A DNA stretch of 64,000 nucleotides from Antedon mediterranea (taxonomy: Eukaryota > Animalia > Echinodermata): the NCBI RefSeq assembly GCF_964355755.1, contig NC_092678.1:16659881-16723880 (forward strand), in the 5' to 3' direction. Positions 19,026 to 49,946 of this stretch are shown here, piece by piece. The notes beneath the pieces were generated by a model. The model searched no databases. It was given only the letters and a program-made list of their open reading frames with translations, and was not told where the DNA came from. Both the position numbers and the translations under genes were made by a program. Each line of letters begins with the position of its first letter. Within the stretch, counting starts at the first letter, position 1.

Positions 19026-19055
19026 GATATAAATGTATATAATAATGAAGCCAAA

Positions 19056-19262: not shown

Positions 19263-21276
19263 TTTATTATTTATTTTGTACTCTTAGCATAAATGTAATT
19301 AAGGTTTCTGTTCATATATTTTTATCGCATTAAAACCAAAAGGAAGCAATTGGATTATAATTTATTAGAAAAATTGATCTTTACTTCTCAAAACTTCTTT
19401 AATGTAATGCATGTTAAACAAGAACACATTGTTTTTTTTTTTGTGGTGATAGAAAACAATAGCTTTACTGTATTTATGCTCTTTTCTCTATGGCCCTGTT
19501 TTTGCATATCCTCAAATACCGTATAAAATATATTTTATACTGTATTTTGACTAACATGTTTCTGCTAGAAGTACTATCTTGGGTGGTCATGTTAAAATTT
19601 GTCTTTTTTAACCAGCCCGCCTTTCGAATTAGAATTATTTTTAGAATTTGTTGTCTTTGTAGCCTCTACTTTCACGGTCTATTTTTGTTTTTTTATTGAC
19701 TTGTTTCAACTACAAGTACCGTACTTTCCTTCTTTGATAAATTTCCTTTCTAAATCTGGCTGTCCTGTTTGCAATTTTTCCGAATTGTCTGTTTCCCCCA
19801 ACAGATTAGTTGCAAGTGCTGTGATGTTGTTCCTTACTTTCATTCACTATATGCTATCCATGTGTAAATAGCTTAAACTTACAGACAATCAAAATATATG
19901 GTATTTTTTATTGGCAGCAGAAAAGTCTACACAAAATATACGGTATAAATTTAAAAATACCGTATTTTATCCACAAATTAGGTAGGGAAAATTATGTGTG
20001 TCAATTATCTCATAAAGTAAAATGTCAATGATCACAAAAATGTCACAATATCTTCCAAATACTTAAACTTAATCCTAATAAGCTTTTCAGCGTGATCACT
20101 CAACCGTGACGTCATTTATACGCCATTTTGTGAAATCACATTATCAATCATATCTCCATAATTCATTATCACAAATAAATTAAATTCTTTGCCTTTAAAG
20201 GCTAGGTGCGGGTAAAAAATTTCTATTGATCATACATTCCAATAATTATCAATCTATAGATTCCCTTATGTTTCATAATTTTTGGGATTTTATTTGTGTT
20301 ACACGAGCTTGTTGAAAATAAGCACTTTCTAATCAGTAATTATAGTACCGGTAATTAGAGTTCAAATTACACAGTAAAATATCTATTCTTTTGTACACAA
20401 ATTTGTAAATAAAAAGGCGTTTTAAAAAGCTATGAAAAATAAATGGTGTGGTAAAAAAATGTTATCAGATGACTAAATATAGGTAATATCACTTAAATAT
20501 TACATTTCTGATATTTTTATTCAACTTCAGATTTTTATTTTCATGCTATAGCAAAAATTATCCACTGTATATCCACCATCTTTTTTCACCATCTAGGGAG
20601 TCACCAGACATGTTATTACATTAGGTTAACTACCTAACTACTGAAAAAACATTATCCTGGTTTTTATGGAAGAATTTTGCCAAATTTTGTATTTGTCCAT
20701 ATTACGGGAAATTGATGTTTTTTCGTCATGATTTCTGTTACAAATATTTGATTTATGTACAATTAACCAAATATTATATTTTAAATTCATGCCTGTACCT
20801 GAGCTTTAAACTTCAGGTCAGGGGTAAAAATATTAGCAAATAAAAACTCACGCGTACGTAGGGTCATGCGCGTGAAATTGCGCGTTAAAAATTTAAAAAG
20901 CTCAAAATTAAGTTTTGATCAATTTAGAGCATGAATTAGGCCATTTGCGTGTTTCAAAAAATTAACACGTTTTTGCGCACGCGATTCGTAAAATGCGTAA
21001 AAAATAAAATTTGATGTATAAATCACATTCTACTCACAATCCTGAGTACATTCACCAAATGTGAGCCCATTTCGACTTAAAATAATTCTATACGAGCATG
21101 TTATTAAAATGAAAAAATGCGCAAATTAATTGTACAAAAGTGCTAAAAATGGTAAAAAATATGGCCTTTTTAAAATGAATATAACTCTTCAGAATGGAAG
21201 GTGACCCCCAATTTTTTTAACTTTTTATGGAAGCCAATGAGTTGTAGATATAAATGTATATAATAATGAAGCCAAA

Positions 21277-21483
21277 ATGATATATAAAATATTCCATAAT
21301 CAAGCACCACCATATCTAAACGAACTATTTACACCCAAACTAGACACATACAATACAAGATCAAAGGATGTATTAAAATTGGATAAACCCAAAAGAGAAT
21401 ATAAAAAAAAATTATGGAATACTCTAGAAAAACCAATACAAAATGCCACAAATTTAAATACTTTAAAAAAATTATTAGTGTGA
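21277..21483 (+). mobile_element. Duplicate of the LINE ORF2 3' fragment
   Basis: Identical translation to 19056-19262. Confidence 0.75.
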
Positions 21484-22740
21484 TTTATTATTTATTTTGT
21501 ACTCTTAGCATAAATGTAATTAAGGTTTCTGTTCATATATTTTTATCGCATTAAAACCAAAAGGAAGCAATTGGATTATAATTTATTAGAAAAATTGATC
21601 TTTACTTCTCAAAACTTCTTTAATGTAATGCATGTTAAACAAGAACACATTGTTTTTTTTTTTGTGGTGATAGAAAACAATAGCTTTACTGTATTTATGC
21701 TCTTTTCTCTATGGCCCTGTTTTTGCATATCCTCAAATACCGTATAAAATATATTTTATACTGTATTTTGACTAACATGTTTCTGCTAGAAGTACTATCT
21801 TGGGTGGTCATGTTAAAATTTGTCTTTTTTAACCAGCCCGCCTTTTGAATTAGAATTATTTTTAGAATTTGTTGTCTTTGTAGCCTCTACTTTCACGGTC
21901 TATTTTTGTTTTTTTATTGACTTGTTTCAACTACAAGTACCGTACTTTCCTTCTTTGATAAATTTCCTTTCTAAATCTGGCTGTCCTGTTTGCAATTTTT
22001 CCGAATTGTCTGTTTCCCCCAACAGATTAGTTGCAAGTGCTGTGATGTTGTTCCTTACTTTCATTCACTATATGCTATCCATGTGTAAATAGCTTAAACT
22101 TACAGACAATCAAAATATATGGTATTTTTTATTGGCAGCAGAAAAGTCTACACAAAATATACGGTATAAATTTAAAAATACCGTATTTTATCCACAAATT
22201 AGGTAGGGAAAATTATGCAAATTTTGTCTAATGTTTTATATGCATGTTAATGTTCAAATCTTGCTGAAGAAAAATCTTTTTTTTTTTATTTTTTGGTTCT
22301 ACATTCTCTCTTTGTGGAATTTTGATTGATTCCAAACATGCTGCTATACCGGGATGAACCCAGTCATTTTCGGAGTTTTTTTTTCATAAACGCACTTTTT
22401 AAAAATAACAGATTGAATTTTAAAAGTAGGTGGGTCTATGTTTTATTTATGTTCATTTGATATTAAGAAAAACATTTTGTAAATTCTCACAATAAGCAGG
22501 CTATTGTAAAGTACTGTAGTTAGAAAATCACTTTGGTGGGTGGAACTATTTACTGGAGGTGTAATCTGTTTATAGACCAATCAGAATGTAGGATTACATT
22601 GGCGTAAAGTCTGATTGGTTTATAAAAGGTGATGTTGGTAGGAACATCCTACAGTATGTGAGATGAGTTTTGTTTGAATAGCTGTTTTAAAGTGGACTAC
22701 TGTATTTAACTTTGTATTTTTAGTGTATTCGAAAAATTTC

Positions 22741-24797: not shown

Positions 24798-26013
24798 TTG
24801 AAGAAAATGATACAATTATCGGCTTGTTATCAATATCATTTATCAGTATAATAACTGTACATTTCCAATATGACCGTTTTGTATTGTAGAGTATCTTATG
24901 CTTTTTATTTGTTTTTATAAAATGCATTCCACAAAAACATAAATAATGCGAATATAATAAATATGTGTTAAGAGATAGGCTACATAAAAAAAATATACCA
25001 TTTCTATTTTATATTTGTTAGAAGAATCTAGAAATAGAACTGTAGCTATTAATTGTACTTTTCATTTCATTTGTCCTTTTTTTCTTTAGCCTAATATATA
25101 ATAATAAACGCAAACGTGAATGCTTTGTTTTTTTAAATCACATCACCTTTTCGCATTAATACCACCAGAAGGAAGCAATTCATTTCTTTATTAGAAAAAC
25201 AGATCTTTACTATACTTTTCAAAACTTCCTTAATAATGTGCATGTAACAAGAACACATTGTGGTTTTTAATAATCCTCAGGTAAAAAACCAACATAGCTA
25301 TTTTGTACTGTACATGGTCTTGTAAAATTTAAAGTTGAATTTCAGTCTTAAAAAAGTACCGGTACATTGTGGTGTAGCTTGTTCTACAAAAAATTATTCA
25401 AGAATTGAAGAAAATGATACAATTATCGGCTTGTTATCAATATCATTTATCAGTATAATAACTGTACATTTCCAATATGACCGTTTTGTATTGTAGAGTA
25501 TCTTATGCTTTTTATTTGTTTTTATAAAATGCATTCCACAAAAACATAAATAATGCGAATATAATAAATATGTGTTAAGAGATAGGCTACATAAAAAAAA
25601 TATACCATTTCTATTTTATATTTGTTAGAAGAATCTAGAAATAGAACTGTAGCTATTAATTGTACTTTTCATTTCATTTGTCCTTTTTTTCTTTAGCCTA
25701 ATATATAATAATAAACGCAAACGTGAATGCTTTGTTTTTTTAAATCACATCACCTTTTCGCATTAATACCACCAGAAGGAAGCAATTCATTTCTTTATTA
25801 GAAAAACAGATCTTTACTATACTTTTCAAAACTTCCTTAATAATGTGCATGTAACAAGAACACATTGTGGTTTTTAATAATCCTCAGGTAAAAAACCAAC
25901 ATAGCTATTTTGTACTGTACATGGTCTTGTAAAATTTAAAGTTGAATTTCAGTCTTAAAAAAGTACCGGTACATTGTGGTGTAGCTTGTTCTACAAAAAA
26001 TTATTCAAGAATT
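24798..26013 (+). repeat. Perfect tandem duplication, 607-bp unit
   Basis: ttgaagaaaatgatacaattatcggc occurs at 24798 and 25405; 2-nt TT microhomology. Confidence 0.95.
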
Positions 26014-27154
26014 CAGAAATTTAACCGATTAAACATTTAGTATACATTCTGAAACCTATAGGTAGGTACAACTAATAAACAGGAGCAGACTATAATGTTT
26101 TAAAGTATTTCCCAACGTGTAATACACAAGCTCCGCCCACTTTGTAACCAACCCTATATGCGCAAGCTTTATTAAAACTTAAGTTATATGTATAGAAAAC
26201 CTTATTTCTGAAAAATAGCATCAAAGAAAAATGTTAACCAAAGGGTATCGAAAATATAATAAGAAAATATTTGAGAAAACAAATGGTGAATTTAATGTTT
26301 TTGCTTAAGCCACACAATTAGAATTGTTCATCGCAATACGCTATTTATTAAACATGCTTGCTAAGCCTAATCTCTAGGCACAAGGTATTCATGCATTGTG
26401 TTCTACACTTCTTGTAGAAGAAAAATCAAAACGAAGAAGTATATTATAGCAACTGCTCGCTTGACTACGCTGTTATGCAAATGAGTAGAATTCAAATTCA
26501 AAATTTAAAAAACTGTTATAGTCCAATTACATACACAATATATACAATTGGAAATGTGTCGTTTGATACACAACAAACATAACAAATATAAAATAATATA
26601 GAATTATACTGAACATCATTCACACAAAACTTGTTACAACAAAAATATAAAAGAGCACCTCTATTAAAAACATTACATTGGTTGTAAACCACTGAAGCAT
26701 ATCTGAGGTACTCTATGTCTGGATGTTTTAGTTTTTCATTGCTATGCCTTCTGAAGTAATGGTTTTCGTATTTAACAACCAACACCTGAAAACTTCCTTT
26801 TTTTGGAACCATGTTGCAGACATTACTTTAATAACTAAGTGTTTCTTCACCTTTATTGTTACTGTTCTTGATCAGTGTTTTTCATGACAGTTTCCATACA
26901 GTTAGGAGAAAAATGGCAAAATTAACATTGTGGTCACGTTACAGAGTTGTCAAAACAATATAGACTACTGTATTTCATAACTTAAACAAATAAAACTCCT
27001 AGAAAGTAGGAACCCTTTTGCCATTTTCCCCCTGACTGGTTATTTTACTCTAGTAGCTAGATCAACTTTCGTATGCACTTTGAGGTCCAGAGAATTTGAC
27101 TTCAGAAATTGGTTTAGGGTGGTCAAACAATCATTTTTTGTCTTGGTTACACAT

Positions 27155-27770: not shown

Positions 27771-28295
27771 AAGATGAACAGAAATACTATTACTAACGTT
27801 TCAAACAAAAAACATATCTCTACATAACTTATCCTTAGACAGTAATGTTGTATGCAATAACTGATACTTTAAATTGTTTCAATTTCAAGTACTAGTTATT
27901 GCTGTCCCCAAGAACATTTTGATAGAAACGTCAAGCTCAACAGTTCTTTTCAGAATGCTAGAAGTAACTTGCCATGTGTATCCGATTAAACTCCCCAGGC
28001 ATTTATTGTTCAAAGGGGTTTTTAGGGGCAGGGGAGGCATCTTTATTTGTGGTATAATATGGTAATATGTATTTATTTTTTTTTTGGATGCGTATGAAAT
28101 TATGTAAAAAACTAATTTACTGTTTTATGGCATACAGGAAAGGTGAGCATAGACCAGACAATAGAACTAAAAAAATAAAAACTTGAGGTCTAAAAACTAA
28201 ACATGACTAAGAAAAGCGGGACAGAGGCAGTTGGCCTAAGTAGTAAATAAGGTACTTCAGTCCACCCTAGCATTTCATTAATTAATTAATTAGAT

Positions 28296-28452
28296 TAATT
28301 TCCTGTTATTGTAATAATTAAATTATTCCTAATTAATGAAGGTCATTCTTTTCCTGGTTTCGTAATAATTAAATTATTCTTAATTAATGAAGGTCGTTCT
28401 TTTCCTGATTTCGTAATAATTAAATTATTCTTAATTAATGAAGGTCTTTCTT
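28296..28452. repeat. Left subterminal ~51-bp tandem repeat, about 3 copies
   Basis: taattaatgaaggtc.ttcttttcctg.tttcgtaataattaaattattct repeated. Confidence 0.9.
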
Positions 28453-29327
28453 TGTTAGGGGCGTTATTTATTAATATATTTATTTATATTTTAATGGTGT
28501 TTTGCAATGGATTATAAATCGTCCTTGCTGGAGGTTAATTAATCTAATTATTTCGGGTTTCCGTTCTGACCTTTAGTAATTATTTTTTGCTGGTAAAAAT
28601 TTAATTAGCATATCCTACAGATGATCCTTTATTTAATTATTTGTTTTATGGCGCAATTTGTAATTCTTTTGTTTAGTTTTGATTGAAGGGTATGTTTTTA
28701 TCTGGTGTATTATAATTATTGTTTTCTTTTGCAAGGGGTACCCTCCATTGTCCCCTCCATTTTCCCCAATCTTTCTTATCGCATTGTCCATAATGATTGT
28801 ATTGTTATTTCAAGATATATATTTTGACTGTTCAGACTCCCCCAGTCACTTTCAAATCTCCATTACTGACTTAACATCTCATGGTTACCAGTTCAAGTGG
28901 ATTTTGTATAATATATTTTCTACTTTTCTGCGTTCCTGTTTTCGATTTTGTATAATATATTTTCTACTTTTCTGCGTTCCTGTTTTCTAATATTGTAAGT
29001 ACTACTGTTGTTGTCTCGGTATAGTATATTTTTTATTTAGTAATTCTTATTGAGTCGTACTGTCACGTAAAAGGCATTTAATTATCGTTTTTCCTCGGTT
29101 CTTTTAATTATTTTTCGCTGTCTCTTTTTGTCTCTCTAGATCCCTTGCTGTACTCGATTCATTTGTCTCGTTTTTTGGATTTACCAATTTGTTTGGGTGT
29201 ATATTATTTCTATAGCCTAATGTGAGTTTCTTTTTTCTGTTTATTTTCTATTTCGTTATATTAGAGTAGCTCTCAACTTTTTTTATTTTTTTTTCAATTA
29301 ATTTATTGTTATTGTATCGTTGTATAG

Positions 29328-29522
29328 ATGGATATTTCTTACATCCCCACAAGTATGTTAGAAGAGGTGGTTAAGCTCCTCGTCTACGCCGCCTGTAGGC
29401 GGTACATTTTGATGGCAGTGCCTGATTCCACGCTGTGGTATCTGCTAAAGGTTGCCATAGAGGAAATGGAGGAGGAGTTTTACGGGGAGCCTGCGATGTA
29501 TCACCCCTATCCGCCGGCATAA
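29328..29522 (+). CDS. Small ORF or terminal exon of unknown function, unique to the left arm (64 aa)
   Basis: GC-richer island in T-rich DNA, preceded by a pyrimidine tract and AG, oriented inward like all other element genes. No family recognised. Confidence 0.45.
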   Translation: MDISYIPTSMLEEVVKLLVYAACRRYILMAVPDSTLWYLLKVAIEEMEEEFYGEPAMYHPYPPA

Positions 29523-29704
29523 TGCTTGTCGAAGATATCATATTTTTACAGGTTATTTTTGTTCACAAAAAATTTCATCTGGTTTTTATTGTTTTGTATT
29601 TTATATATTTTTTCATTAATTTTTTTTGAGAAATTGATTTTGTAAACAATTGTTTCCAGTTGTTTCCTTTTAATTGTTCAGTGCTTCCCGTTTAGGTATA
29701 ATAA

Positions 29705-29975
29705 ATTATTTTTCTGGCGCGTATTTTTGATTTGTCCTTTCTCCCATCTCTCCATTTTTTCCCTTTGTTGTTTAATTAAGGTGTTTCCTGGGTCCATGTT
29801 TTTCATTTGGTCGAAGGTTATATCTAATGGTCACTGCTGTGGGAAGGTCTTCCTAATTATGTAAGGGTTGTTTGACCAATCTTAATAGCGGACACATTTC
29901 CTAAAGGAAGTTCTAAGTACCTTTGTTTGTTTGTTTTTTAATTTAATTAGTGTCATGGGATGGTATAAAACAACG
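29705..29975 (+). promoter_or_regulatory. Candidate polB promoter (E2F-like site, CCAAT, TATA), mirrored at ~41665-41940 on the minus strand
   Basis: ttttctggcgcg at ~29710, gaccaatc at ~29874 and TATAAAA at 29964, about 70 nt before ATG 30038. All are conserved in the right arm. Confidence 0.5.
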
Positions 29976-30037
29976 TAAGTGTGGATAATTCTTTATTCGC
30001 CTACTGATTATCCAAGACTTATTACTGATTTTTTACA

Positions 30038-33000
30038 ATGGCTCATTACGCATCATCATCATCATCTTCCGATTCTAACGATAGATTGTTTAACGAATGC
30101 CAGAGAGCAGTTGACGCTATCGTTAGCTTATCGCGGAATAATGTAGAAAATATTGATACCCACGATTTTATCCCCGATATTGGACTACTAGAAGATTTCG
30201 TATTTAATGATCAGGACCTTGATTTTGCAGTTAGCCAGAGTGTTTCTGAAGCCGATAGCCTCTTACTTAAATGGATATTTGCAATAATGCTATTGAGATA
30301 GTGCAGGAGCTATCGGCTAATTTGCGTATTGATCACGTAGAAGTAAGTGTTTGTTTAATTTATTTTTTACGTAATATTTATTTTACCGTGTATAATTCTA
30401 AAAAAGTAGATTGTGTGTAACCGAACGTGTGTTTACAGCGTTTTACGGCTTCTTTGTGTTTCTTTCTAATTTATTTATTTATTTATTTTTAAATTTTTTT
30501 GTTTACCGTGTATATCTCATAAAGTGTTTCTGCGTTTACGGTTTATACGCGTTTTCCTTTCTAATTTATCTATTTATTTTTTTCTGTATATAGTACGGTG
30601 TTGGTGCTCACACCAAATGTTTAAGATTGAGAGGAAATGTCGAGATTAATGATTCAGTGGAGTCTTCGATTACTGAGGTAACTATCGTTTTATTTTCTTT
30701 ACTACTGTTGTTGTTGTTGTTGTACCACGTCTTTTATTTCTTTTTCTTTACCGTTTTTCTCTGTTTGTTTTCAGCCTGCACCCATACAATACGGAAGGGG
30801 CGTTAATAGAAAGAGGCTCAGAATCGAAGACGGAGAAGAATTTGCCGATATTGATACTGTTGAAGACGAGAACCTTAATCTGGATGAGGTAGAGTTGAGT
30901 CACTTCTGTAGTATTGTTCAATTAGCTGATAGGTATAATCAACGTTTTAACGCGACTATTAGTGATTTTTTAGTTAATTTTTTTAATGTTGATCATTTAA
31001 GTTTAGAGGTGTTTCTGCCCACACTGTATCGAATTTTCGAGCATGTCGTCGATAATGTCTGCGTTAACGTGCATGTCGACGACATGCTTCGAATAGTCAT
31101 ACAGGCTGAGGGGTTAGATTCACCTATCTCTATCCCTTTTGGACGGAGGGGCCATCTTACGGCTGACGTTATTTTTGCAGCCATTATGAAGGTCCTTCAG
31201 TCCAAAACGGATATTTTTATTAATAACAAGTTTAAATTTAACGTTCTCCACATGAGAATGCCTAGGGGTGGGGGCTATAGAAGAAACGGTATCGACATAT
31301 TGTTAAATGCTAAATGTATAATTAAGATTAAGAATGATGATAACGAAACTATCTGCTGCGCACGCGCTATTGTTACGGGTATTTCTATGCTCGAAGACAA
31401 AATTAACAACGTAACTAGATGGAATAACGTTAGGCAAGGTTGGCGTCAGCAAAAAATAGCCGCCCTTCATTTACTTAGAGATTCGGGGGTTAGGGAGCAG
31501 ACATGTGGCATCGAGGAAATAAAAAAGATGCAATCAAAATTACCAAATTACCAAATTATTGTCATTTCAAAAGACAATTTAAATTCTGTCATTTTTAGCG
31601 GCGATTATAGAAAGAAGCAGATATATCTTTATCACCATTCTAATCATTACGATCTCATAACCACAATGACAGGTTTTCTAAAATTTGACTATTTCTGCGA
31701 TAGATGTCATAAGGGGTATAATCACAAATACCAACACAATTGTCAATTTACGTGCGTGCTGTGTAAGCACAATGACTGCCCCTCTTCTAATTCTTTTGAT
31801 AATAGAGAGAGTAGAATAGAATGTAAAGAATGTAATAGATTTTTTAAGGATAAGCAATGTTTCACCAATCATAAACAATCTCCTGATTCTAAAGTTTCAG
31901 TATGTGGCAAAATTAAAAATTGTTCAACTTGTAATAGGATCGTTCAAAAAGATCACAATTGTCAAAACCGCTTTTGTAGAATTTGTAGGACTTTCGTTTC
32001 ATACGATCATCAATGCTACATGGAACCGGTTGTAGCCCCTAAGCATACTGAAAGAAAGTTTAAGAATCAGGAGACCCGTAACAGAGCTGTCACCAAATAT
32101 TTCTTTTTTGATTTCGAATGCACGCAAGATACAGGCGAACACAAACCAAATTTATGCGTTCTTCAAAAAACTTGTCTTAATTGTATCGACGGTGCTAATG
32201 ATTCCGCCGATTGTGACGTGTGTGGGGATAAAACAGTGGTTTTTCACGGGGGGTCTGCATGCGAAGATTTCTGCAATTACGTTTTCAAAGATTACAAATT
32301 TAACGAAAATAGTACGTGTATCGCTCACAACTTCCAGGGTTATGATAGCTACTTCGTGCTCAACTACCTGTACGAAAACTCCATTGTACCGGATGTAATT
32401 GCTCGCGGTTGTAAACTTATTTCGATTAGGACTAAAGAAACGAGCATTCGATTCATCGATTCCCTTTCATTTCTGCCCATGCCTCTATCCAAATTGCCCA
32501 AAACTTTTGGGATCTCCGAACTTAAAAAGGGTTACTTTCCTCATTATTTTAATTCTTTAGAAAACCAAAATTACGTAGGTCCTTACCCCGATTCTTCAAA
32601 TTATTCCCCCGATAAAATGACTACTTCAGGTCGAGAATCTTTCTTTAAATGGTACAACCAGAAAATTGAAAGTAATCAAATATTTGATCTTAAAAAAGAA
32701 CTCGTCGAGTATTGTATCAGCGATGTAGATATTCTCAGAAAGTGTTGTCTTACTTTTAGACATCTTTTTTTGAAAGTAACTATATCGCCGAAAGACCCTC
32801 TACTCGGCGGTGTTGACCCCTTTTCAAATAATTTAATGACAATTGCCTCAGCGTGTAACCACGTATTTTCTAGAAATTTTTTAAAACCATCCACCATCGC
32901 TCTATTTCCATCATCAGGGTATCTAACAACCGTTAACCATTCTCACTCTAGCATGGAATGGCTGTGCTACGAGTCGCATAAAAGGGGGTCTTTATCCATC

Positions 33001-34693
33001 ATGCCAGAAATGGAGGGGAAAAAATGTTTGGGCCTTACTCCGTCGACGGCGCATGTTTAGAAAACAAAATAATTTTCGAATTTATGGGTTGTTTTTTCCA
33101 CGGGTGCCAAGATTGTTATAGACCCGATTCCATTAATCCCTTCAATAACGAGACCATGTTGGAATGCTTTGTCAAGACAAGCAAGAAAACACGGTTTCTG
33201 AAGGAACAATTTCCAGATTTCGAGTACGTCGAAATTTGGGAACACGAATGGAAACGGATCAAACAATCGTTGGCCCCAAACATTAAATCTATCGTCTCCA
33301 AAGTTCCTTTAATTAGGCAAACTTTGAATCCAAAGACGCGTTTTTCGGTGGGAGGACTAATGCCAGTTGTTTGTTCTATAAGGTAAAACCGGGTGAAGAA
33401 ATTAATTACATAGATTATACTTCCTTGTACCCTTATGTAAATAAATACGGTACCTACCCCGTAGGGCATCCTGAAATCAATGATCGCAACGACATGTCCA
33501 CAGATATCAACGATTATTTCGGCTTGATAAAGTGTACAATCGAAGCGCCTAAAAAATTATTCCATCCGGTCTTACCTTATAGATCAAACGGTAAATTAAT
33601 GTTTGCTCTCTGTAGAACATGCGCCGATTCTCAACAACAAACCGCTTGCAATCATTCCGGTACAGATAGAGAATTTACGGGTTCTTGGGCAACGATCGAA
33701 GTCGCTAAAGCCGTGGAAGTTGGGTACGAGATACGTAAAGTTCACGTAGTATGGCACTTTAAAAATAAAAGCGCGTACTCTGCAGATTCTCCCTCGTCCG
33801 GTATATTTGCCTCTTACATTAACACCTTTTTAAAATTGAAACAAGAAGCTTCGGGTTGGCCTGAATGGTGTAAAACGCCCGAAGATAAACAAAAATACAT
33901 TTCGGACTATCGAACCGTAGAAGGTATCGACTTGAATCATGACGACATTGCGTACAATCCTGGGCTTCGATCTCTGGCCAAATTAATGCTAAATAGTTTT
34001 TGGGGTAAATTTGGCCAGCGTGAAAATCTCACGAAAATTAAATACACGCAAGATCCTAACGAGGTTTACGATATTTTATCGAACCCTGGGATAACCGTTC
34101 ATGACATAAATTTTGTTAATGATGATTTGGCGGAGGTAAAATACGAGGACGAGGAACAATTTGTAGAAGTTAACCGAAAGGTTAACGTTGTCATTGCCGC
34201 ATTTACCACAGCGTTAGCGCGTTTAAAATTGTACGAGCTGTTGGAGCAATTACAGGAGCGCGTCCTGTATTATGATACCGACAGCGTAATCTTCGTATCA
34301 AAACCCAGGGAATGGGACCCTCCCCTGGGCGACTATTTGGGTCAGTTAACGACCGAGGTCGATCCTAAAGATGGTAAATTCATCGAGTCCTTCGTTTCTG
34401 GAGGGCCTAAGAACTACGCCTATAAATTGGATACGGGGAAGACCGTTTGTAAAGTTAAGGGTTTTACCCTTAACTTTACAAACGCTCAGAAAATTAATTT
34501 TGACACCGTCTCCAATATGGTAAGGGGTGTTGGTCCCGATACAATTAAGACGGTTGAGAAGAATCGCATAACGCGCAAGCCAAAAACACGAAAGATAGTC
34601 AACGAAACATCGACTAAAGACTATCGAATCGTGTACGACAAAAGAATTATTATCGAAAATTATCGTACAGTTCTTTACGGGTATGTTTGGTGA
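30038..34693 (+). CDS. polB: Protein-primed family B DNA polymerase (Polinton type), left copy; spliced join(30038-30342,30594-30677,30775-34693); frameshifted as assembled
   Basis: Exonuclease motifs FFDFE, AHNFQGYD and YCISDV; polymerase motifs YIDYTSLYP, KLMLNSFWGK, YYDTDS, KNY and KVKG; OTU-like ICCARAI..HYDLI; Cys clusters; Vsr-like insert VDG..EFMGCFFHGC..WEHEW. Frameshifts near 30265, 32985 and 33333 relative to the right copy. Confidence 0.93.
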
Positions 34694-34879
34694 ATCACGG
34701 CCATAAATTTCTTTTCAAAAATGTAAACATACTTTGTTATAGATAATTATTTGTTACTCTTTATACATTCTTTACCGTACTCTCTCTTTTTTTTTTTTAT
34801 AGTTTGAACAAAATATATTTGTAGTTTTAATGTAAATATTTTTATACCTGTTTTAATATAAATAATTTTTATACCCGTT

Positions 34880-35430
34880 TTTTAAAGTCGAATTTTTGCG
34901 GGGTTAAGTACATATATTTTTAAATATTTTTCCGCTTGATTTTCTTATGTCGATGCCGTTTCTCTTTTTGTAGATTAAGTACATATATTTCGTAATTTTA
35001 ATTTAAATATTTTACCACTTGAATTCTTATGTCGATACCGTTTCTCCTTTTTGTAAATTAAGTAAATATATTTTTCCACTTGAATTTCTTATGTCGATAC
35101 CGTTTCTCTTTTTGTAGATTAAGTAAATATTGTTATAACTGTTTTAATGTTAATAAATTTTATACTTATAAAAATCGATTTTTGTAGGTTAAGCAATATT
35201 GTTGTAATTTTAATTTAAATATTTCTCCACTTGAATTCTTATGTCGATACCGTTTCTCTTTTTGTAGATTAAGTAAATATTGTTATAACTGTTTTAATGT
35301 TAATAAATTTTATACTTATAAAGTCGATTTTTGTAGATTAAGCAATATTTTTGTAATTTTAATTTAAATATTTTTCGACTTGAATTCTTATGTCGATACC
35401 GTTTCTCATTTTGCGGATTAAGCAAATACA
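34880..35430 (+). repeat. Degenerate tandem array downstream of left polB, 5 copies of core tatgtcgataccgtttct
   Basis: Cores start at 34946 (1 mismatch), 35028, 35090, 35240 and 35389. Confidence 0.92.
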
Positions 35431-35637
35431 TGTTTGTAAAGTTATTTTGTTTTATGCGAAATTTGAAATAAATTTAATCACTGTACTTGTTTATAATATA
35501 TATACTTGTCTGTTTCTTAATGTTGACGTAGACGATGATGATAACAACAACAACAACAAAAGACGTACGTAATGGTGACTGTAATTTTTATTTTATCGTA
35601 TCCAATATAAATATTGTAATCTCTCCTCTTTCTTGTT

Positions 35638-36101
35638 CAGTCCAGTCGATCAAGTACCATGCTTTGTTAATTCCTAGCTTCGTACTACATAGAACAAGTT
35701 CCTATAAAAATAATAATAATAAATAAAAGATAATATAGAAATTAACCATGAACTCTGAACGTGGGAAAAAAGACTTGTGTCAATTGACACTTGAACTTGA
35801 CCTCTATACAAGGACGAATAGACTGTGACAATTAACCATGACCTCTGGTCCCAAAAGCATGGGGGTTTCAGTTTTCGACTTCGTCGAAATTTGAGAGCCT
35901 CCCAATAAAACGGTTGACCAGAGGTCATGGTTAATTTCTATATTATCTTTTATTTATTATTATTATTTTTATAGGAACTTGTTCTATGTAGTACGAAGCT
36001 AGGAATTAACAAAGCATGGTACTTGATCGACTGGCTAGTAGGCATTTATAAGGCCTTGCTGGAACGAATTGTTTGGTGACGTTGGATAAATAAAAAATTT
36101 A
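35638..36101. other. Branched imperfect hairpin at the symmetry axis of the element
   Basis: Stem 35642-35750/35926-36034; alternative inner stem 35831-35850/35916-35935; apical TTTCGAC-TTC-GTCGAAA at 35873-35889; side palindrome GTGTCAATTGACAC at 35777-35790; right-arm bulge 36035-36101. Confidence 0.85.
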
Positions 36102-36309
36102 AACAAGAAAGAGGAGAGATTACAATATTTATATTGGATACGATAAAATAAAAATTACAGTCACCATTACGTACGTCTTTTGTTGTTGTTGTTGTTATCA
36201 TCATCGTCTACGTCAACATTAAGAAACAGACAAGTATATATATTATAAACAAGTACAGTGATTAAATTTATTTCAAATTTCGCATAAAACAAAATAACTT
36301 TACAAACAT

Positions 36310-36710
36310 GTATTTGCTTAATCCGCAAAATGAGAAACGGTATCGACATAAGAATTCAAGTCGAAAAATATTTAAATTAAAATTACAAAAATATTGCTTA
36401 ATCTACAAAAATCGACTTTATAAGTATAAAATTTATTAACATTAAAACAGTTATAACAATATTTACTTAATCTACAAAAAGAGAAACGGTATCGACATAA
36501 GAAATTCAAGTGGAAAAATATATTTACTTAATTTACAAAAAGGAGAAACGGTATCGACATAAGAATTCAAGTGGTAAAATATTTAAATTAAAATTACGAA
36601 ATATATGTACTTAATCTACAAAAAGAGAAACGGCATCGACATAAGAAAATCAAGCGGAAAAATATTTAAAAATATATTTACTTAACCCCGCAAAAATTCG
36701 ACTTTAAAAA
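36310..36710 (-). repeat. Mirror tandem array downstream of right polB, 4 core copies
   Basis: agaaacggtatcgacata at 36333, 36482, 36544 and 36626 (1 mismatch); one ~150-bp unit fewer than the left array. Confidence 0.92.
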
Positions 36711-36893
36711 ACGGGTATAAAAATTATTTATATTAAAACAGGTATAAAAATATTTACATTAAAACTACAAATATATTTTGTTCAAACTATAAAAAAAAAA
36801 GAGAGAGTACGGTAAAGAATGTATAAAGAGTAACAAATAATTATCTATAACAAAGTATGTTTACATTTTTGAAAAGAAATTTATGGCCGTGAT

Positions 36894-39800
36894 TCACCAA
36901 ACATACCCGTAAGGAACTGTACGATAATTTTCGATAATAATTCTTTTGTCGTACACGATTCGATAGTCTTTAGTCGATGTTTCGTTGACTATCTTTCGTG
37001 TTTTTGGCTTGCGCGTTATGCGATTCTTCTTAACCGTCTTAATTGTATCGGGACCAACACCCCTTACCATATTGGAGACGGTGTCAAAATTAATTTTCTG
37101 AGCGTTTGTAAAGTTAAGGGTAAAACCCTTAACTTTACAAACGGTCTTCCCCGTATCCAATTTATAGGCGTAGTTCTTAGGCCCCCCGGAAACGAAGGAC
37201 TCGATGAATTTACCATCTTTAGGATCGACCTCGGTCGTTAACTGACCCAAATAGTCGCCCAGGGGAGGGTCCCATTCCCCGGGTTTTGATACGAAGATTA
37301 CGCTGTCGGTATCATAATACAGGACGCGCTCCTGTAATTGCTCCAACAGCTCGTACAATTTTAAACGCGCTAACGCTGTGGTAAATGCGGCAATGACAAC
37401 GTTAACCTTTCGGTTAACTTCTACAAATTGTTCCTCGTCCTCGTATTTTACCTCCGCCAAATCATCATTAACAAAATTTATGTCATGAACGGTTATCCCA
37501 GGGTTCGATAAAATATCGTAAACCTCGTTAGGATCTTGCGTGTATTTAATTTTCGTGAGATTTTCACGCTGGCCAAATTTACCCCAAAAACTATTTAGCA
37601 TTAATTTGGCCAGAGATCGAAGCCCAGGATTGTACGCAATGTCGTCATGATTCAAGTCGATACCTTCTACGGTTCGATAGTCCGAAATGTATTTTTGTTT
37701 ATCTTTGGGCGTTTTACACCATTCAGGCCAACCCGAAGCTTCTTGTTTCAATTTTAAAAAGGTGTTAATGTAAGAGGCAAATATACCGGACGAGGGAGAA
37801 TCTGCAGAGTACGCGCTTTTATTTTTAAAGTGCCATACTACGTGAACTTTACGTATCTCGTACCCAACTTCCACGGCTTTAGCGACTTCGATCGTTGCCC
37901 AAGAACCCGTAAATTCTCTATCTGTACCGGAATGATTGCAAGCGGTTTGTTGTTGAGAATCGGCGCATGTTCTACAGAGAGCAAACATTAATTTACCGTT
38001 TGATCTATAAGGTAAGACCGGATGGAATAATTTTTTAGGCGCTTCGATTGTACACTTTATCAAGCCGAAATAATCGTTGATATCTGTGGACATGTCGTTG
38101 CGATCATTGATTTCAGGATGCCCTACGGGGTAGGTACCGTATTTATTTACATAAGGGTACAAGGAAGTATAATCTATGTAATTAATTTCTTCACCCGGTT
38201 TTACCTTATAGAACAAACAACTGGCATTAGTCCTCCCACCGAAAAACGTGTCTCTTGGATTCAAAGTTTGCCTAATTAAAGGAACTTTGGAGACGATAGA
38301 TTTAATGTTTGGGGCCAACGATTGTTTGATCCGTTTCCATTCGTGTTCCCAAATTTCGACGTACTCGAAATCTGGAAATTGTTCCTTCAGAAACCGTGTT
38401 TTCTTGCTTGTCTTGACAAAGCATTCCAACATGGTCTCGTTATTGAAGGGATTAATGGAATCGGGTCTATAACAATCTTGGCACCCGTGGAAAAAACAAC
38501 CCATAAATTCGAAAATTATTTTGTTTTCTAAACATGCGCCGTCGACGGAGTAAGGCCCAAACATTTTTTCCCCTCCATTTCTGGCATGATGGATAAAGAC
38601 CCCCCTTTTATGCGACTCGTAGCACAGCCATTCCATGCTAGAGTGAGAATGGTTAACGGTTGTTAGATACCCTGATGATGGAAATAGAGCGATGGTGGAT
38701 GGTTTTAAAAAATTTCTAGAAAATACGTGGTTACACGCTGAGGCAATTGTCATTAAATTATTTGAAAAGGGGTCAACACCGCCGAGTAGAGGGTCTTTCG
38801 GCGATATAGTTACTTTAAAAAAAAAGATGTCTAAAAGTAAGACAACACTTTCTGAGAATATCTACATCGCTGATAAAATACTCGACGAGTTCTTTTTAAG
38901 ATCAAATACTTGATTACTTTCAATTTTCTGGTTGTACCATTTAAAGAAAGATTCTCGACCTGAAGTAGTCATTTTATCGGGGGAATAATTTGAAGAATCG
39001 GGGTAAAGACCTACGTAATTTTGGTTTTCTAAAGAATTAAAATAATGAGGAAAGTAACCCTTTTTAAGTTCGGAGATCCCAAAAGTTTTGGGCAATTTGG
39101 ATAGAGGCATGGGCAGAAATGAAAGGGAATCGATGAATCGAATGCTCGTTTCTTTAGTCCTAATCGAAATAAGTTTACAACCGCGAGCAATTACATCCGG
39201 TACAATGGAGTTTTCGTACAGGTAGTTGAGCACGAAGTAGCTATCATAACCATGGAAGTTGTGAGCGATACACGTAATATTTTCGTTAAATTTGTAATCT
39301 TTGAATACGTAATTGCAGAAATCTTCGCATGCAGACTCCCCGTGAAAAACCACTGTTTTATCCCCACACACGTCACAATCGGCGGAATCATTAGCACCGT
39401 CGATACAATTAAGACAAGTTTTTTGAAGAACGCATACATCTGGTTTGTGTTCGCCTGTATCTTGCGTGCATTCGAAATCAAAAAAGAAATATTTGGTGAC
39501 AGCTCTGTTACGGGTCTCCTGATTCTTAAACTTTCTTTCAGTATGCTTAGGGGCTACAACCGGTTCTATGTAGCATTGATGATCGTATGAAACGAAAGTC
39601 CTACAATTTCTACAAAAGCGGTTTTGACAATTGTGATCTTTTTGAACGATCCTATTACAAGTTGAACAATTTTTAATTTTGCTACATACTGAAACTTTAG
39701 AATCAGGAGATTGTTTATGATTGGTGAAACATTGCTTATCCTTAAAAAATCTATTACATTCTTTACATTCTATTCTACTCTCTCTATTATCAAAAGAATT

Positions 39801-41593
39801 AGAAGAGGGGCAGTCATTGTGCTTACACAGCACGCACGTAAATTGACAATTGTGTTGGTATTTGTGATTATACCCCTTATGACATCTATCGCAGAAATAG
39901 TCAAATTTTAGAAAACCTTTCATTGTGGTTATGAGATCGTAATGATTAGAATGGTGATAAAGATATATCTGCTTCTTTCTATAATCGCCGCTAAAAATGA
40001 CAGAATTTAAATTGTCTTTTGAAATGACAATAATTTGGTAATTTGGTAATTTTGATTGCATCTTTTTTATTTCCTCGATGCCACATGTCTGCTCCCTAAC
40101 CCCCGAATCTCTAAGTAAATGAAAGGCGGCTATTTTTTGCTGACGCCAACCTTGCCTAACGTTATTCCATCTAGTTACGTTGTTAATTTTGTCTTCGAGC
40201 ATAGAAATACCCGTAACAATAGCGCGTGCGCAGCAGATAGTTTCGTTATCATCATTCTTAATCTTAATTATACATTTAGCATTTAACAATATGTCGATAC
40301 CGTTTCTTCTATAGCCCCCACCCCTAGGCATTCTCATGTGGAGAACGTTAAATTTAAACTTGTTATTAATAAAAATATCCGTTTTGGACTGAAGGACCTT
40401 CATAATGGCTGCAAAAATAACGTCAGCCGTAAGATGGCCCCTCCGTCCAAAAGGGATAGAGATAGGTGAATATAACCCCTCAGCCTGTATGACTATTCGA
40501 AGCATGTCGTCGACATGCACGTTAACGCAGACATTATCGACGACATGCTCGAAAATTCGATACAGTGTGGGCAGAAACACCTCTAAACTTTTATGATCAA
40601 TATTAAAAAAATTTACTAAAAAATCGCTAATAGTCGCGTTAAAACGTTGGTTATACCTATCAGCTAATTGAACGATTCTACAGAAGTGATTCAACTCTAC
40701 CTCATCAAGGTTAAGGTACTCGTCTTCAACAGTATCAATATCGGCAAATTCTTCTTCTTCTTCTCCGTCTTCGATTCTGAGCCTCTTTCTATTAACGCCC
40801 CTTCCGTATTGTATGGGTGCAGGCTGAAAACAAAAAGAGAAAAACGGTAAAGAAAATGAAATAAAAGACGTTGTACAACAACAACAACAACAGTAGTAAA
40901 GAAAATAAAACGATAGTTACCTCAATAATCGAAGACTCCGCTGAATCATTAATCTCGACATTTCCTCTCAAACTCAAACATTTGGTGTGAGCACCAACAC
41001 CGTACTATACAGAAAAAAAAAAAAAATAGATAAATTAGAAAGGAAAACGTATATAAACCGTAAACGCAGAAACACTTTGTAAATGCCCCAATTACATAAA
41101 CTACTACTTTATGAGATATACCCGGTAAAAAAAAAAAAATTTAAAATTAAATAAATAAATTAGAAAGAAACACAAAGAAGCCGTAAAACGCTGTAAACAC
41201 ACGTTCGGTTACACGCAATCTACTTTTTTAGAATTATACACGGTAAAATAAATAGTACGTTAAAAAAAAATAAAATAAACAAACACTTACTTCTACGTCA
41301 TCAATACGCAAATTAGCCGATAGCTCCTGCACTATCTCAATAGCATTATTACAAATATCCGAAAGTGAGAGGCTATCGGCTTCAGAAACACTCTGGCTAA
41401 CATCCAAATCAAGATCCTGGTCATTAAATACGAAATCTTCTAGTAGTCCAATATCGGGGATAACATCGTCGGTATCGATATTTTCGACATTATTTTGCGA
41501 TAAACTAACGATAGCTTCTACTGCTCTCTGGCATTCGATAAACAAGCTATCGTTAGAATCGGAAGATGATGAAGATGATTCGTTATGAGCCAT
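36894..41593 (-). CDS. polB: Protein-primed family B DNA polymerase, right copy; spliced complement(join(36894-40823,40921-41004,41291-41593)), ~1438 aa if repaired
   Basis: Same motifs as the left copy, plus FFGGRT. A -1 indel (~38893) and a compensating +1 indel (~38820), both in homopolymers, create a stop at 38862. GT-AG phase-0 introns. Confidence 0.93.
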
Positions 41594-41727
41594 TGTAAAA
41601 AAAAAAAAATCAGTAATAAGTCTAGAATAATCAGTAAGCGAATGAAGAATTACCCACACTTACGCTGTTTTTATACCATCCCATGACACTAATTACATTT
41701 AATAATATATGCAAACAAAGGTACTTG

Positions 41728-42148
41728 GAACTTCCTTTAGGAAATGTGTCCGCTATTAAGATTGGTCAAACAGCCCTTACATAATTAGGAAGACCCTCCC
41801 ACAACAGTGACCATTAGATTTAGCCTTCGACAAAACGGAAAAACATGGACCCCGGAAACACCTTAATTAAAACAACAAAGGGAAAAAATTGAGAGATGTA
41901 GTGAAAGGACAAATCAAAAATACGCGCCAGAAAAATAATTTATTATACCTAAACGGGAAGCACTGAAAGCAAGAACTTCCTTTAGGAAATGTGTCCGCTA
42001 TTAAGATTGGTCAAACAGCCCTTAAATAATTAGGAAGACCTTCCCACAACAGTGACCATTAGATTTAGCCTTCGACCAAACGGAAAACATGGACCCAGGA
42101 AACACCTTAATTAAAACAACAAAGGGAGAAAATTGAGAGATGTAGTGA
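41728..42148. repeat. Direct duplication of a ~176-bp upstream block (41728-41904 / 41973-42148) at the edge of arm homology
   Basis: gaacttcctttaggaaatgtgtccgctattaagattggtc...gagagatgtagtga occurs twice. Confidence 0.9.
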
Positions 42149-42194
42149 TACCTTTTTCCGGTCAATCGTTTCCGTGACACGTGCGAAACACAAC

Positions 42195-42749
42195 TTAAAT
42201 GTCCTCGCACAACAGCTTAAAAATAGCCTCTGAATTAATCAGGATATTTACAAGAAAATAAACGAAATGTCTATACCGAGGCAATGAACATTCTCCGTGC
42301 ATATTTAGTTCGTTGTAAACGGTATCGGCTGAAACATACTTCTTATCCAGAACCTCCCGATAAAAATAGTCAATCTGTTCTTCTAGAGACTTCATACAAC
42401 AAAAAACATGATCTTTTTGACTGCTCCTGTCAAATTCACAACCATAACAAGCCGCTTTACTTAACAACCAACACTGGCCTAACACTTGAGCAACAAACAA
42501 TTTTTTAATCAAACGTTCCATTTTCAACAAAAATTCTCTCTCCACCTCGTCCACGTACGTAAATATACAACTTGTAGGCCTGTTACTCTTCTCGACTCCT
42601 TCATCTATACCGGCGGGGATAACCTCTTCGGCCGCCATGTAACGATCATCTATATCACTGCCTGGAACAACAACACTATCCTCGTCATCGCTAATTATTA
42701 TAACAGTATCTACACAACTCCCTTGCGAAAAATATATACTTCCAGACAT
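42195..42749 (-). CDS. Uncharacterised 184-aa protein with a SIM-like motif and a CxGC..SQxxH..CC putative zinc site
   Basis: Intact ATG ORF oriented inward, with motifs VIIISDDEDS and CYGCEFDRSSQKDHVFCC. A paralogous N-terminus occurs at 43893. Confidence 0.7.
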   Translation of the reverse strand: MSGSIYFSQGSCVDTVIIISDDEDSVVVPGSDIDDRYMAAEEVIPAGIDEGVEKSNRPTSCIFTYVDEVEREFLLKMERLIKKLFVAQVLGQCWLLSKAACYGCEFDRSSQKDHVFCCMKSLEEQIDYFYREVLDKKYVSADTVYNELNMHGECSLPRYRHFVYFLVNILINSEAIFKLLCEDI

Positions 42750-42919
42750 AATGAAATACTGTAAAGAGATACTCTACGCAAAAATAGACAAAACAACTGG
42801 AGAATAGTACAACAATAACCGATTCACTTTGTTACACCATCTTAAATCGTAAATAAAGTAATGACGTCACTCACCACGTACCAGAACCTCGCGCCGAAAA
42901 ATTAATAAATATGAGACAA

Positions 42920-43195
42920 AGAAACACCTGGCGGAAATTACATAACTAATACAATAACAGGAAAAGAACGACCTTCATTAGAAACACCTGGCGGAAATTA
43001 CATAACTAATACATTAACTGGAAAAGAACGACCTTCATTAGAAACACCTGGCGGAAATTACATAACTATTACAATAACAGGAAATGAATGACCTTCATTA
43101 GAAACACCTGGCGGAAATTACATAACTATTACAATAACAGGAAATGAATGACCTTCAATAGAAACACCTGGCGGAAATTACGTAATCAGGAAATA
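42920..43195. repeat. 60-bp tandem repeat, about 4.5 copies
   Basis: agaaacacctggcggaaattacataacta.tacaataacaggaaa.gaa.gaccttcatt repeated. Confidence 0.95.
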
Positions 43196-43326
43196 CACAA
43201 GGTCATTTTCTGTCTGAAGTCCCACTACTTCTACTCCTACAGGTCCAGGTTTGAAGGCACCATTTTCTTCCGTTTGATAAAATTCTCTGAGGCAAACATA
43301 AACAACTTCACCCCAGCGCTGGGCCA

Positions 43327-43893
43327 CTACATGGCGTTTTTCAGACAGAAAATCCTGTTTGTTGATGTTATTGTAATCTTTGGTTCAGCACCGGTCATTT
43401 CGGCATAATCCTTGGCGCTCATTCCTGGGGCAGAGTGAAATGTTTTTTTACTTGTTGACGGCTTCGTTGCTTTACTCAAATCGTTAGATTGACCGTTGAA
43501 AAATTTTCTAGGATCCAATAATTTCGAGGAGTTAGAAGTCATCGTTGGTACTTTAAAACTGCTACACTCGTCAGTTTTAGAGCTCCTCATAACTCTTTTC
43601 ATAGTCCTACGAGCCTTCTCACCAATTGCTAATTTTGGAGCAGGTACTTTTTTTAAACTCATATTGAGCGATTGTATGTAGAGTGATGTACAGAGAGAGT
43701 GAAACGAACGTAAATATACAACTTGTATCGCGGCTACCCCTCTCAACTCCTTCATCAACACCGGTATACCCTCATTGGTCCGCATGTACCGATCACCGAT
43801 ATCGTTACCTGTAACAACAGTCTCCTCATCATCGGTAATAATTATAACTGTATCTACACAGCTACTTAACGAAAAATCTATACTTCCAGACAT
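43327..43893 (-). pseudogene. Chimeric ORF: degraded paralog of the 184-aa ORF N-terminus fused to a basic, Lys/Ser-rich ORF
   Basis: MSGSIDFSLSSCVDTVIIITDDEE matches the 42749 ORF, then shifts frame. From MSLKKVPAPK onward the sequence is unrelated and basic. Confidence 0.5.
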
Positions 43894-44249
43894 AGCGAAA
43901 TACTGTAACTCTACGTTAAAATAGACGAAACAACTGAAAAGGTCACAAAAAGCAGTCCCTCTTCTTACAATGTCTAAAAAGAAACGGCTCTAAAATATCA
44001 AAAACAAAACTATTGTACCAAACAAAAAGACCAATGAACAAAAGAAATTAGGATATACTAAACAAAGGTGACCTATGCAATAGTCAAACCGCCTAAAAAT
44101 AACAACAGCAATCCTCAAACAAAGAACTACCTTCACTAATATATTTAAATTACAAATTCATCACCAACTACAATTATAACCCAGGCCAAAACGAAAACCC
44201 CGCCAAAATAACAAACCCCCTTCTCTAACAAAGAATGACCGCTAATTAA

Positions 44250-44428
44250 TATTACAATAACAGGAAATTAAACAATAGAAAATATAATATAAACCCTGGG
44301 GATATGACATTCCTTTCGGGTCTGGTACAAAGAGTGACCTTTCACTAATTATTATTACAATACCTGGAAATTAAACAATAGAAATATGAAATATGCCCTG
44401 GGGGTATGACATTCCATTCGGGTCTGGA
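44250..44428. repeat. Right subterminal ~103-bp tandem repeat, 2 copies
   Basis: attacaata.c.ggaaattaaacaatagaaa...ccctgggg.tatgacattcc.ttcgggtctgg occurs twice. Confidence 0.85.
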
Positions 44429-44882
44429 ATACTTCTGCCCTGGGTGTATAAACTTATATTTTGGCCTGGTTTACTCCCTATACTACTCGCATAGTGTATA
44501 AATAGGAATGTTATCGCTATTATTGATACATTTTAGACATTTTGCGAAAAATCGCTGTACAGACATTCCTTTTCTTCAAACAATGGCCATGCGCATGTTA
44601 TATAATGTGACAATTTGTTTTGCACATCAACTTAGAAATTAATGGGCACATTTTGTTTTGAAAAAAAGCAAAGCGACACAAAAATTAAATCAACCGACAA
44701 CACATTAAAAAAAAATATACTGTAAAGGCCTGCTTATTATAATCTATAACAATATGGCAAAATAATTGAATTTTGAAATTAATTAACATAACATACGGTA
44801 TATATTTACCGATGTAGATTGGTAAAAGATAGTGTAGTAGGAAGATAAGCCGCCTCTCACGACGAGTAGGGATACAATCATT

Positions 44883-48928: not shown

Positions 48929-49946
48929 CTAGACTATGGTTCGCTCGCGTACCATCTAGGTCGTGTTCACAGATGGTACTCAAATACACAGTAATTTCAG
49001 CGTAAAAAAAACTGGTGATTTCAAATGTACGTACCGCATGCCTATAAATACATTGTCGTTTTCAGAAACGAATAAATAGGCACGATGAAAAATGAGTCCA
49101 ATTTTTTTATCTTAACTCATTTAAACAAACCCAATTTGTGTTTAGTATATAACATTAGAGTTGTGGGATGGGGAAGAGGATTGGAAGAACAATTTTTAAA
49201 TATATGTTCTATCCACTCAGTGACGAAATATTGTTTTAAATGCTATATCAATAATATACCACTAAACACAGTAAAACATTTACGATTTATAATACTTTTT
49301 TAAAACTGATTCAAAAGGCGACTAAAAATGGTTAATACGTATTTACAATATTGCCAAAGTATTACAATATTATATCTCCGTTGTAAATTTATTCTCCAAG
49401 GGCCCAAAATGTACTTGTGTTAAACCAAGGGCCCATAAATGTACCTACTTGTGTTAAACCAAGGGCTCATAAATTTACCTACAAACTGAGAGTCCGAGAG
49501 ATTGGAATGTTCCATTCATCGCAAATCAATACATTTGTATAAACGTATAATATTAAATCTATCAAAATAGTATTTTTTTAAAGAAAAATCGGCCTGTCTT
49601 TAACATTATGATTCTGTACTCGAGCTGTTCAAACGGTTTTTCAGCTATTAAAATCAATTATCGTATTATTGTGTGCAGGTGTTTTTCAATAGGACATCCA
49701 TCTAGACAGTGTATACCACGATTGGAAAACACCCCTATTTGGGGCAAATCGTTGAACCTAAATTCGTTTTAATTGTCAATAACTAATTATCTAACTCAAT
49801 TTAATTAGTAAACAGGGTTACATCAGGTGGTTAAAATAAGTACCGATATTCTAACCAACTTTATATACCATCATTGAGTAAACCTTCTAGAAATAACGCG
49901 CGATTTACCGAATGCACTTGCACTTACGTAAATTTATATATATAGA
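48929..49946 (-). mobile_element. Non-autonomous Helitron, second diverged copy
   Basis: Colinear with 3015-4346, with the same TC...CTAG termini between A and T; the hairpin is partly deleted. Confidence 0.85.

Follow-up and report, generated by a model that had tools for sequence, protein, structure and literature searches.

The locus at positions 28239-44487 of a 64,000-nucleotide stretch from Antedon mediterranea (NC_092678.1; hereafter the window, to which all positions refer) contains a Polinton-like element in which two gene copies for a DNA polymerase B of the protein-primed kind (pPolB) face each other in mirror image. It raises the question of whether such a structure represents a new self-replicating element or the product of a rearrangement. 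A first-pass annotation, made from the sequence alone, had suggested the integrated form of an ~8-kb linear replicon with one protein-primed end and one hairpin end, or a satellite dependent on a helper Polinton, and had offered a one-off fold-back rearrangement or a fusion of two truncated Polintons as the mundane alternative. The mundane alternative, in the form of a fold-back joined to a second truncated Polinton, was found to fit better. With moderate confidence, we interpret the locus as a dead composite Polinton remnant that arose from one template-switch fold-back and recombination with a second copy; it holds the polymerase half in mirror image, has lost the virus module, and is not a new self-replicating element. 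A Polinton origin, the loss of the integrase and capsid module, and a fold-back centre, all proposed earlier, were supported. The features that form the mirror are as follows.

29677..35757, + strand: left arm of the inverted repeat; compared with the right arm, 73 of 1313 bases are substituted in its outer part (29677-30998) and 26 of 4606 in its inner part
35919..41967, - strand: right arm; includes about 63 bases (36036-36101) that the left arm lacks but other copies of the family have
30038..34693, + strand: left pPolB pseudogene; predicted exons 30038-30342, 30594-30677 and 30775-34693, after a TATA box
36894..41593, - strand: right pPolB pseudogene; predicted exons 41593-41291, 41004-40921 and 40823-36894

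Self-comparison bore out the ~6.1-kb inverted arms of the first-pass annotation (29677-35757 against 35919-41967; 99 substitutions per 5919 aligned bases), and both pPolB copies point inward, as had been stated. Divergence between the arms changed in one step near 31000 (change point 30999; twice the log-likelihood difference, 121), from 5.6% in the outer part to 0.56% in the inner part. Within the inner part, the three thirds were alike, with 12, 6, and 8 substitutions per 1535 bases each. Coding differences numbered 19 non-synonymous to 14 synonymous in the outer arms and 17 to 3 in the inner arms; with a synonymous share of sites of 0.20, the latter ratio is near the neutral expectation. 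The outer arms thus appear to be two selected variants, and the inner arms appear to have drifted neutrally. The step at ~31000, together with the coding ratios, indicates that the outer left 1.3 kb came from a second variant, and that the inner 4.7 kb of both arms came from one template.

A full-length pPolB gene had been reported in each arm. The full span was indeed present: each arm holds a single pPolB region with exonuclease and polymerase motifs, whose long pieces match PF03175 at E 4e-21 to 9e-12. Both copies, however, were frameshifted. The left copy carries three frameshifts (near 30270, 32983, and 33333), and the right copy carries two indels (near 38900 and 38820) with a stop codon between them. 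At the right-arm indel sites, contigs of all four public runs that were compared (see below) differ from the window, and the right-arm breaks are therefore particular to this copy. The long polymerase open reading frame (ORF) lacks its own start codon; upstream lie a TATA box and two short GT-AG exons (30038-30775 / 41593-40823), namely an acidic ATG exon of 101 residues and an 84-base exon, which are joined in frame in the right arm. On this layout pPolB is predicted to be spliced with two introns, which the first-pass annotation had missed. Also upstream of the right polymerase promoter, a ~245-bp piece (41728-42148) is tandemly duplicated (97% over 177 bases); it is single in the left arm.

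In a model of the N-terminal 352 residues of pPolB (predicted local distance difference test, pLDDT, 84), residues 60-164 matched Y-family little-finger domains (Z ~6, root-mean-square deviation (rmsd) 3-4.6 Å), and residues 170-298 matched OTU proteases (Z 10.3, rmsd 3.2, 122 aligned). Cys194 and His291 of the OTU-like domain were invariant across 69 rows. The model points to a protein-primed PolB with terminal-protein (TP) and vOTU domains, as expected of a Polinton, although both genes are broken; this TP-vOTU layout is described in PMC11161782. A 128-residue insert near 38277-38660 was modelled at pLDDT 95. It gave no Foldseek match at E 0.001, no Pfam match, and nothing below E 0.8 in a PDB sequence search; the best Foldseek match, a weak one, was E. 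coli VSR 1vsr (E 0.022, prob 0.99, TM 0.48), followed by 1cw0 (E 0.04). Judging from the model and these weak matches, the insert may be a VSR-type nuclease domain, in line with the pPolB2 group of 10.1101/2023.08.22.554363. The nearest pPolB homologues are 49-55% identical and come from a sea cucumber, molluscs, and lancelets.

Decay of this copy was also apparent from public sequencing runs. Part of the stretch was contained in 9 of the 11 runs listed (four studies, three organism codes), with no RNA run listed as a carrier, and several variants of the family occur among them. Four runs were compared, over 35440-41000 only, as contigs (32 of 676 pieces and 40 of 404 difference rows); the contigs of run X9 lie outside the centre. 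From the 40 rows, 17 were left out (non-coding, minor-variant only, or beside indels), giving 23 coding sites. Sites polymorphic among the runs were 2 non-synonymous to 8 synonymous. When all covering runs differed from a window letter common to both arms, the ratio was 5:2 (Fisher p 0.05 versus polymorphic sites); when they differed from a right-arm-only letter, it was 6:0 (Fisher p 0.003 versus 2:8). These ratios point to past selection on the family but not on this copy. The excess of non-synonymous changes among the shared private mutations indicates that the template was already decaying when mirrored, or that decay spread by conversion.

The centre of the mirror comprises the following features.

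34824..35428, + strand: AT-rich tandem repeats (27, 61, 83, and 149 bp) behind the polymerase, with one 150-bp unit beyond the right arm's number
35749..35829, no strand: fold-back junction and unpaired spacer, presumably left over from the sequence into which the parent continued; copying would have switched at a short microhomology near 35749-35757
35830..35936, no strand: built-in hairpin; perfect 21-bp inverted repeat 35830-35850 / 35916-35936 with a 65-base loop

The hairpin is strong (z -5.35; 0 of 200 shuffles as strong), and both arms stop at the same base of its stem. To its left are ~72 unpaired bases and then an 18-base repeat of the stem, with which the left arm begins; the microhomology near 35749-35757 repeats part of the 21-bp stem. 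Contigs from three of the four compared runs (X1, X4, and X6) depart from the window at 35767. By eye, the overhanging letters of these contigs agree with 35749-35765 at 16 of 17 places, including 35752, the single base that breaks the 116-bp inner repeat, and then diverge from the left arm. Because these contigs run past 35767 into other sequence, it appears that the parent continued onward and that the mirror begins at the microhomology. Among the contigs listed (32 of 676 pieces, repeats skipped), none bridges the window's left junction. A 19-base centre motif had 0 matches in viral contigs, a single-protein scan of viral contigs yielded no relative, and an Rfam search of 28000-44700 gave 0 matches.

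The ends of the element were then compared. In addition to the two outer ends, a third was recognized.

28239..28453, + strand: left end, variant A; AGTAGT, then 51-bp subterminal repeats (28299-28453)
42920..43235, - strand: inner right end, variant B; opens with AGTAGA at 43235 and continues as a 60-bp subterminal repeat present in 4.4 copies
43236..43662, - strand: 5' part of a PC4-domain gene; frameshift near 43350, cut exactly at the inner end
43704..44487, - strand: outer end belonging to a third element, C, with AGTAGT at its tip, subterminal repeats of 102 bp, and a 5' piece of a second Cys-motif gene

According to PMC8097293, a Polinton end carries 5'-(AGT)2 or (AG)3, and terminal inverted repeats (TIRs) and target-site duplications (TSDs) of 6 bp without mismatch are demanded as well. 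The end motif was found as AGTAGT at 28239, ACTACT at 44482-44487, and AGTAGA at 43235. The first two of these had been proposed as the termini; both are present, but the hexamer alone is weak evidence, as it occurs 40 times in the 64 kb. No TIR of 100-1500 bp was found at the ends, which share 5-7 bases and diverged subterminal repeats; the two outer ends are identical over 7 bases only. No TSD of 5-8 bp was found at 28239/44487, where the 6-base flanks match at 4 of 6 positions (chance ~6%), and none at 28239/43235, where there is a 4-base match only. A decayed TSD for 28239/44487 was considered and rejected as less likely than chance (0.0005-0.02 versus 0.06), since a true TSD of that age would rarely differ twice. 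The terminal 1.3-1.4 kb of the two halves is non-homologous except for repeats, and the two identical protein-primed ends of a palindromic replicon were thus not found.

The third end, at 43235, is recognized because the PC4 gene is cut exactly there and because subterminal repeats follow; it had been missed in the first-pass annotation, as had the divergence step at ~31000. The cut gene matches an annotated relative, P0134, at 39 of 39 residues up to 43235 and then stops at the AGTAG start and end-type repeats. The left-end repeats align to both right-hand ends above host controls, and the block 42920-43185 resembles the left end more closely (score 134) than does the outer right end (score 81), with host controls reaching no more than 52; a 16/24-base match of the left end to 43235 is not significant alone. 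From the PC4 cut and the repeats at 43235, the fold-back unit spans 28239-43235; it likely lies within another element, whose end would be 43236-44487. The left end and the inner right end lie in different target sequences, and the remainder of the cut PC4 gene was not found at the left flank of the element. Relatives of this gene carry two PC4 stretches, some also AlkB. Four annotated relatives from Antedon mediterranea (P0134-P0137) lie on three different long contigs, and an AlkB-type 2OG-Fe(II) oxygenase domain was present in two of three PC4 relatives scanned; genes annotated in the host as 'ALKBH2-like' may be Polinton cargo.

The six-frame profile search called for in the first-pass annotation was performed on the whole window, as 2863 pieces, with one profile per module gene derived from 11-14 related Polintons. 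The ATPase, integrase, and protease clusters were named by Pfam, and the capsid clusters by size and gene order only. The integrase profile, from 13 relatives, reached a best E of 2.5; best E values for ATPase, protease, major capsid, and minor capsid were 0.26, 0.19, 2.3, and 1.7, respectively. The reported absence of these genes from the element was thereby borne out. The small ORFs noted besides pPolB include the cut PC4-domain gene and a Polinton accessory gene, neither of which had been recognized.

29328..29522, + strand: 64-aa ORF in the left-only part; no Pfam match
42195..42749, - strand: Cys-motif accessory gene (184 aa); its relatives are an accessory gene in the complete Polinton L094 and 11 unnamed proteins

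One of the accessory ORFs shares 95% identity with a protein of Antedon mediterranea. For the Cys-motif protein, a word-based search gave no match and the ESM Atlas gave an uninformative best of 0.76. A Cys-motif homologue (P0121) and a pPolB homologue (P0028) come from the same source, both with a 5489-base longest contig, which hints that these genes may lie side by side in other places as well.

What the missing module may have been was indicated by 147 related loci, mostly on short-read contigs, which break at palindromes. When at least 3 kb was available behind pPolB, module genes were found there in 18 of 22 loci, and somewhere in the locus in 20 of 22. They often point back to pPolB over a non-coding gap; in L015, the nearest locus with context, the ATPase gene lies 685 bases behind pPolB. 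A fold-back within this gap would remove exactly the module. A second inverted pPolB was found in 0 of the 147 loci, a weak test on such short contigs; the comparison documents what is usual in the clade and does not show that mirrored forms are lacking. Inspection of the module-less loci L046, L112, and L096 revealed no long mirror. The 9.3-kb L096, a host-type contig in a bacterial bin, has an intact 1280-aa pPolB, with 200-bp tandem repeats on the upstream side and short inverted repeats on the downstream side; ACTACT occurs close to the contig's end, and within 2 kb no module gene was seen. Many GTDB bins from animal-associated samples (L091-L137) hold eukaryotic Polinton contigs, probably through binning contamination.

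We propose the following sequence of events. A copy B, the left half of a Polinton arranged as end, Cys-motif gene, pPolB, repeats, 21-bp hairpin, and onward sequence, would have resided inside the PC4 gene of element C, where it gathered unselected mutations. A replication or repair polymerase that had passed ~70 bases beyond the hairpin would then have jumped back at the microhomology, which matches part of the hairpin stem, and have read B in reverse for 4.7 kb. Near 31000, it would have switched by homology onto a copy A, located in host DNA and representing a variant whose terminal 1.4 kb is different. Everything between would have been lost, and with it the packaging and integrase genes, which in related elements come after pPolB. 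We favour a chromosomal setting for the jump and the switch over free replicating DNA. Such an inverted duplication with deletion explains the unlike ends, the missing TSD, and the near-identical inner arms.

Several points weigh against this reconstruction. The order of events is itself inferred, and the comparison with related loci relies mostly on short-read contigs prone to break at palindromes. The nearest homologues, at only 49-55% identity, cannot fix the gene content of the family's intact members. The private mutations common to both arms could stem from gene conversion of a ready-made palindrome after its insertion, and a second copy of the junction may exist elsewhere in the genome. 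Moreover, in X1 and X6, one contig each joins the other side of the loop to spacer-like sequence (by eye; 24 of 30 letters match in X6). By the same inspection, the loop would be flipped in some copies, or these contigs would represent the centre of another palindrome, and this is the main hint for a recurring form.

Such a recurring form is the basis of the rival that survives best, which we regard as possible but rather unlikely. Here the locus would be a recombinant copy from a family of polymerase-only snap-back replicons, satellites of intact Polintons. Displaced strands would fold at the hairpin, be copied to ~15-kb TP-primed palindromes, and be inserted by the integrase of a helper Polinton; the loop would flip between copies, the ends would recombine with other variants, gene conversion would later even out the arms, and the TSD would have been lost to a deletion next to it. 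The halves are indeed similar in size (7.5 and 7.3 kb), the central hairpin is strong and pre-existing with its loop joined differently in other copies, and the polymerase retains its TP-like and OTU folds, with variation among runs that is mostly synonymous (8 of 10). However, the ends are unlike, there is no TSD, the genes are broken, and the shared private mutations are mostly non-synonymous. In three runs, other copies continue beyond the junction into non-mirror sequence, and the 147 loci, as far as that weak test goes, contributed no second inverted pPolB. The ~8-kb replicon of the first-pass annotation predicts identical ends, a TSD, and working polymerases, none of which was observed, and it is also countered by the locus-private mutations common to both arms.

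Two independent Polinton insertions facing each other, with a plain deletion between them and gene conversion of the inner arms, would account for unlike ends in unlike target sites and for outer arms from two variants. We nevertheless consider this improbable, because a random deletion would not yield arms that end at the same stem base with an 18-base stem piece duplicated at the centre, and because the divergence shows a single sharp step with similar inner thirds. That the mirror stems from misassembly, through reads that fold back or through collapse of a repeat, is very improbable: coding indels mostly in short homopolymer or repeat runs and a left junction bridged by none of the contigs listed would fit this, but the 26 inner substitutions, the 63-base and 150-base asymmetries, the asymmetric spacer, and the variant switch are unlike a mirrored read, and recent tandem duplicates elsewhere in the window differ at only 2 of 2227 and 1 of 616 bases, suggesting accurate base calls.

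The locus works like a defective folded-back protein-primed replicon; by the features compared here, it is neither an autonomous Polinton nor a palindromic replicon with identical ends. Among hairpin and palindromic derivatives of protein-primed linear plasmids, the pGKL1 hairpin plasmid (Kikuchi 1985) and the kalilo derivative (Vierula and Bertrand 1992) are each reported to be a palindrome made by folding back one half of such a replicon. Those are reportedly free molecules with identical ends, whereas the present locus is integrated and has unlike ends and broken polymerases. It resembles animal Polintons/Mavericks of the pPolB2 type with VSR (10.1101/2023.08.22.554363, PMC8097293, PMC11161782) in its TP-like/OTU pPolB, its AGT-type ends, its overall size, and its PC4 and Cys-motif accessory genes, as in the complete Polintons L027 and L094, and perhaps also in its putative VSR insert. 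It differs from them in having two inverted pPolB genes and three ends, and no integrase, ATPase, protease, or capsid genes, TIR, or TSD. Inverted duplications with deletion, formed by template switching and ectopic recombination (PMC10766186), are alike in the interrupted palindrome with a short spacer, in one junction at microhomology and the other in a homologous repeat, and in asymmetric erosion near the centre. The cases covered there are from human and yeast chromosomes and involve no virus-like element, whereas here the repeats are Polinton copies. The eri-6/7 locus of C. elegans (10.1101/2024.01.15.575659) likewise contains several pPolB-end Polinton remnants, with pPolB and an end without integrase, rearranged by ectopic recombination; a multi-kb mirror with two polymerases is not described in the accessible portion of that paper. 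No description of a two-polymerase palindromic Polinton was found in the full-text literature searched, which excludes most subscription papers, the founding Polinton papers, Repbase, and supplements; the string 'palindrom' does not occur in the available text of PMC6431247, PMC8502044, or PMC11131425.

So far, sequence has been the main source of conclusions on how Polintons replicate. With its junction traceable to a hairpin and a microhomology, the fold-back illustrates how these elements lose their virus module in animals and give rise to palindromes of several kb. Should the form recur, it would correspond, among Polintons, to defective-interfering genomes and would directly record strand-displacement replication; if it is a single dead locus, it is an instructive rearrangement and no new replicon. 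Pipelines that require pPolB and integrase within 20-40 kb, as set out in PMC8097293 and 10.1101/2023.08.22.554363, would overlook the mirrored form.

Outside the element, a ~1.3-kb direct repeat (79-89% identical) flanks it on both sides (3039-4344 and 48947-49942). A tandem cluster of immunoglobulin-domain genes occupies 4607-26019 (ORFs 6495, 14379, and 23386); it contains recent exact duplications (17770-22217 and 24798-26019), and some of its copies look truncated.

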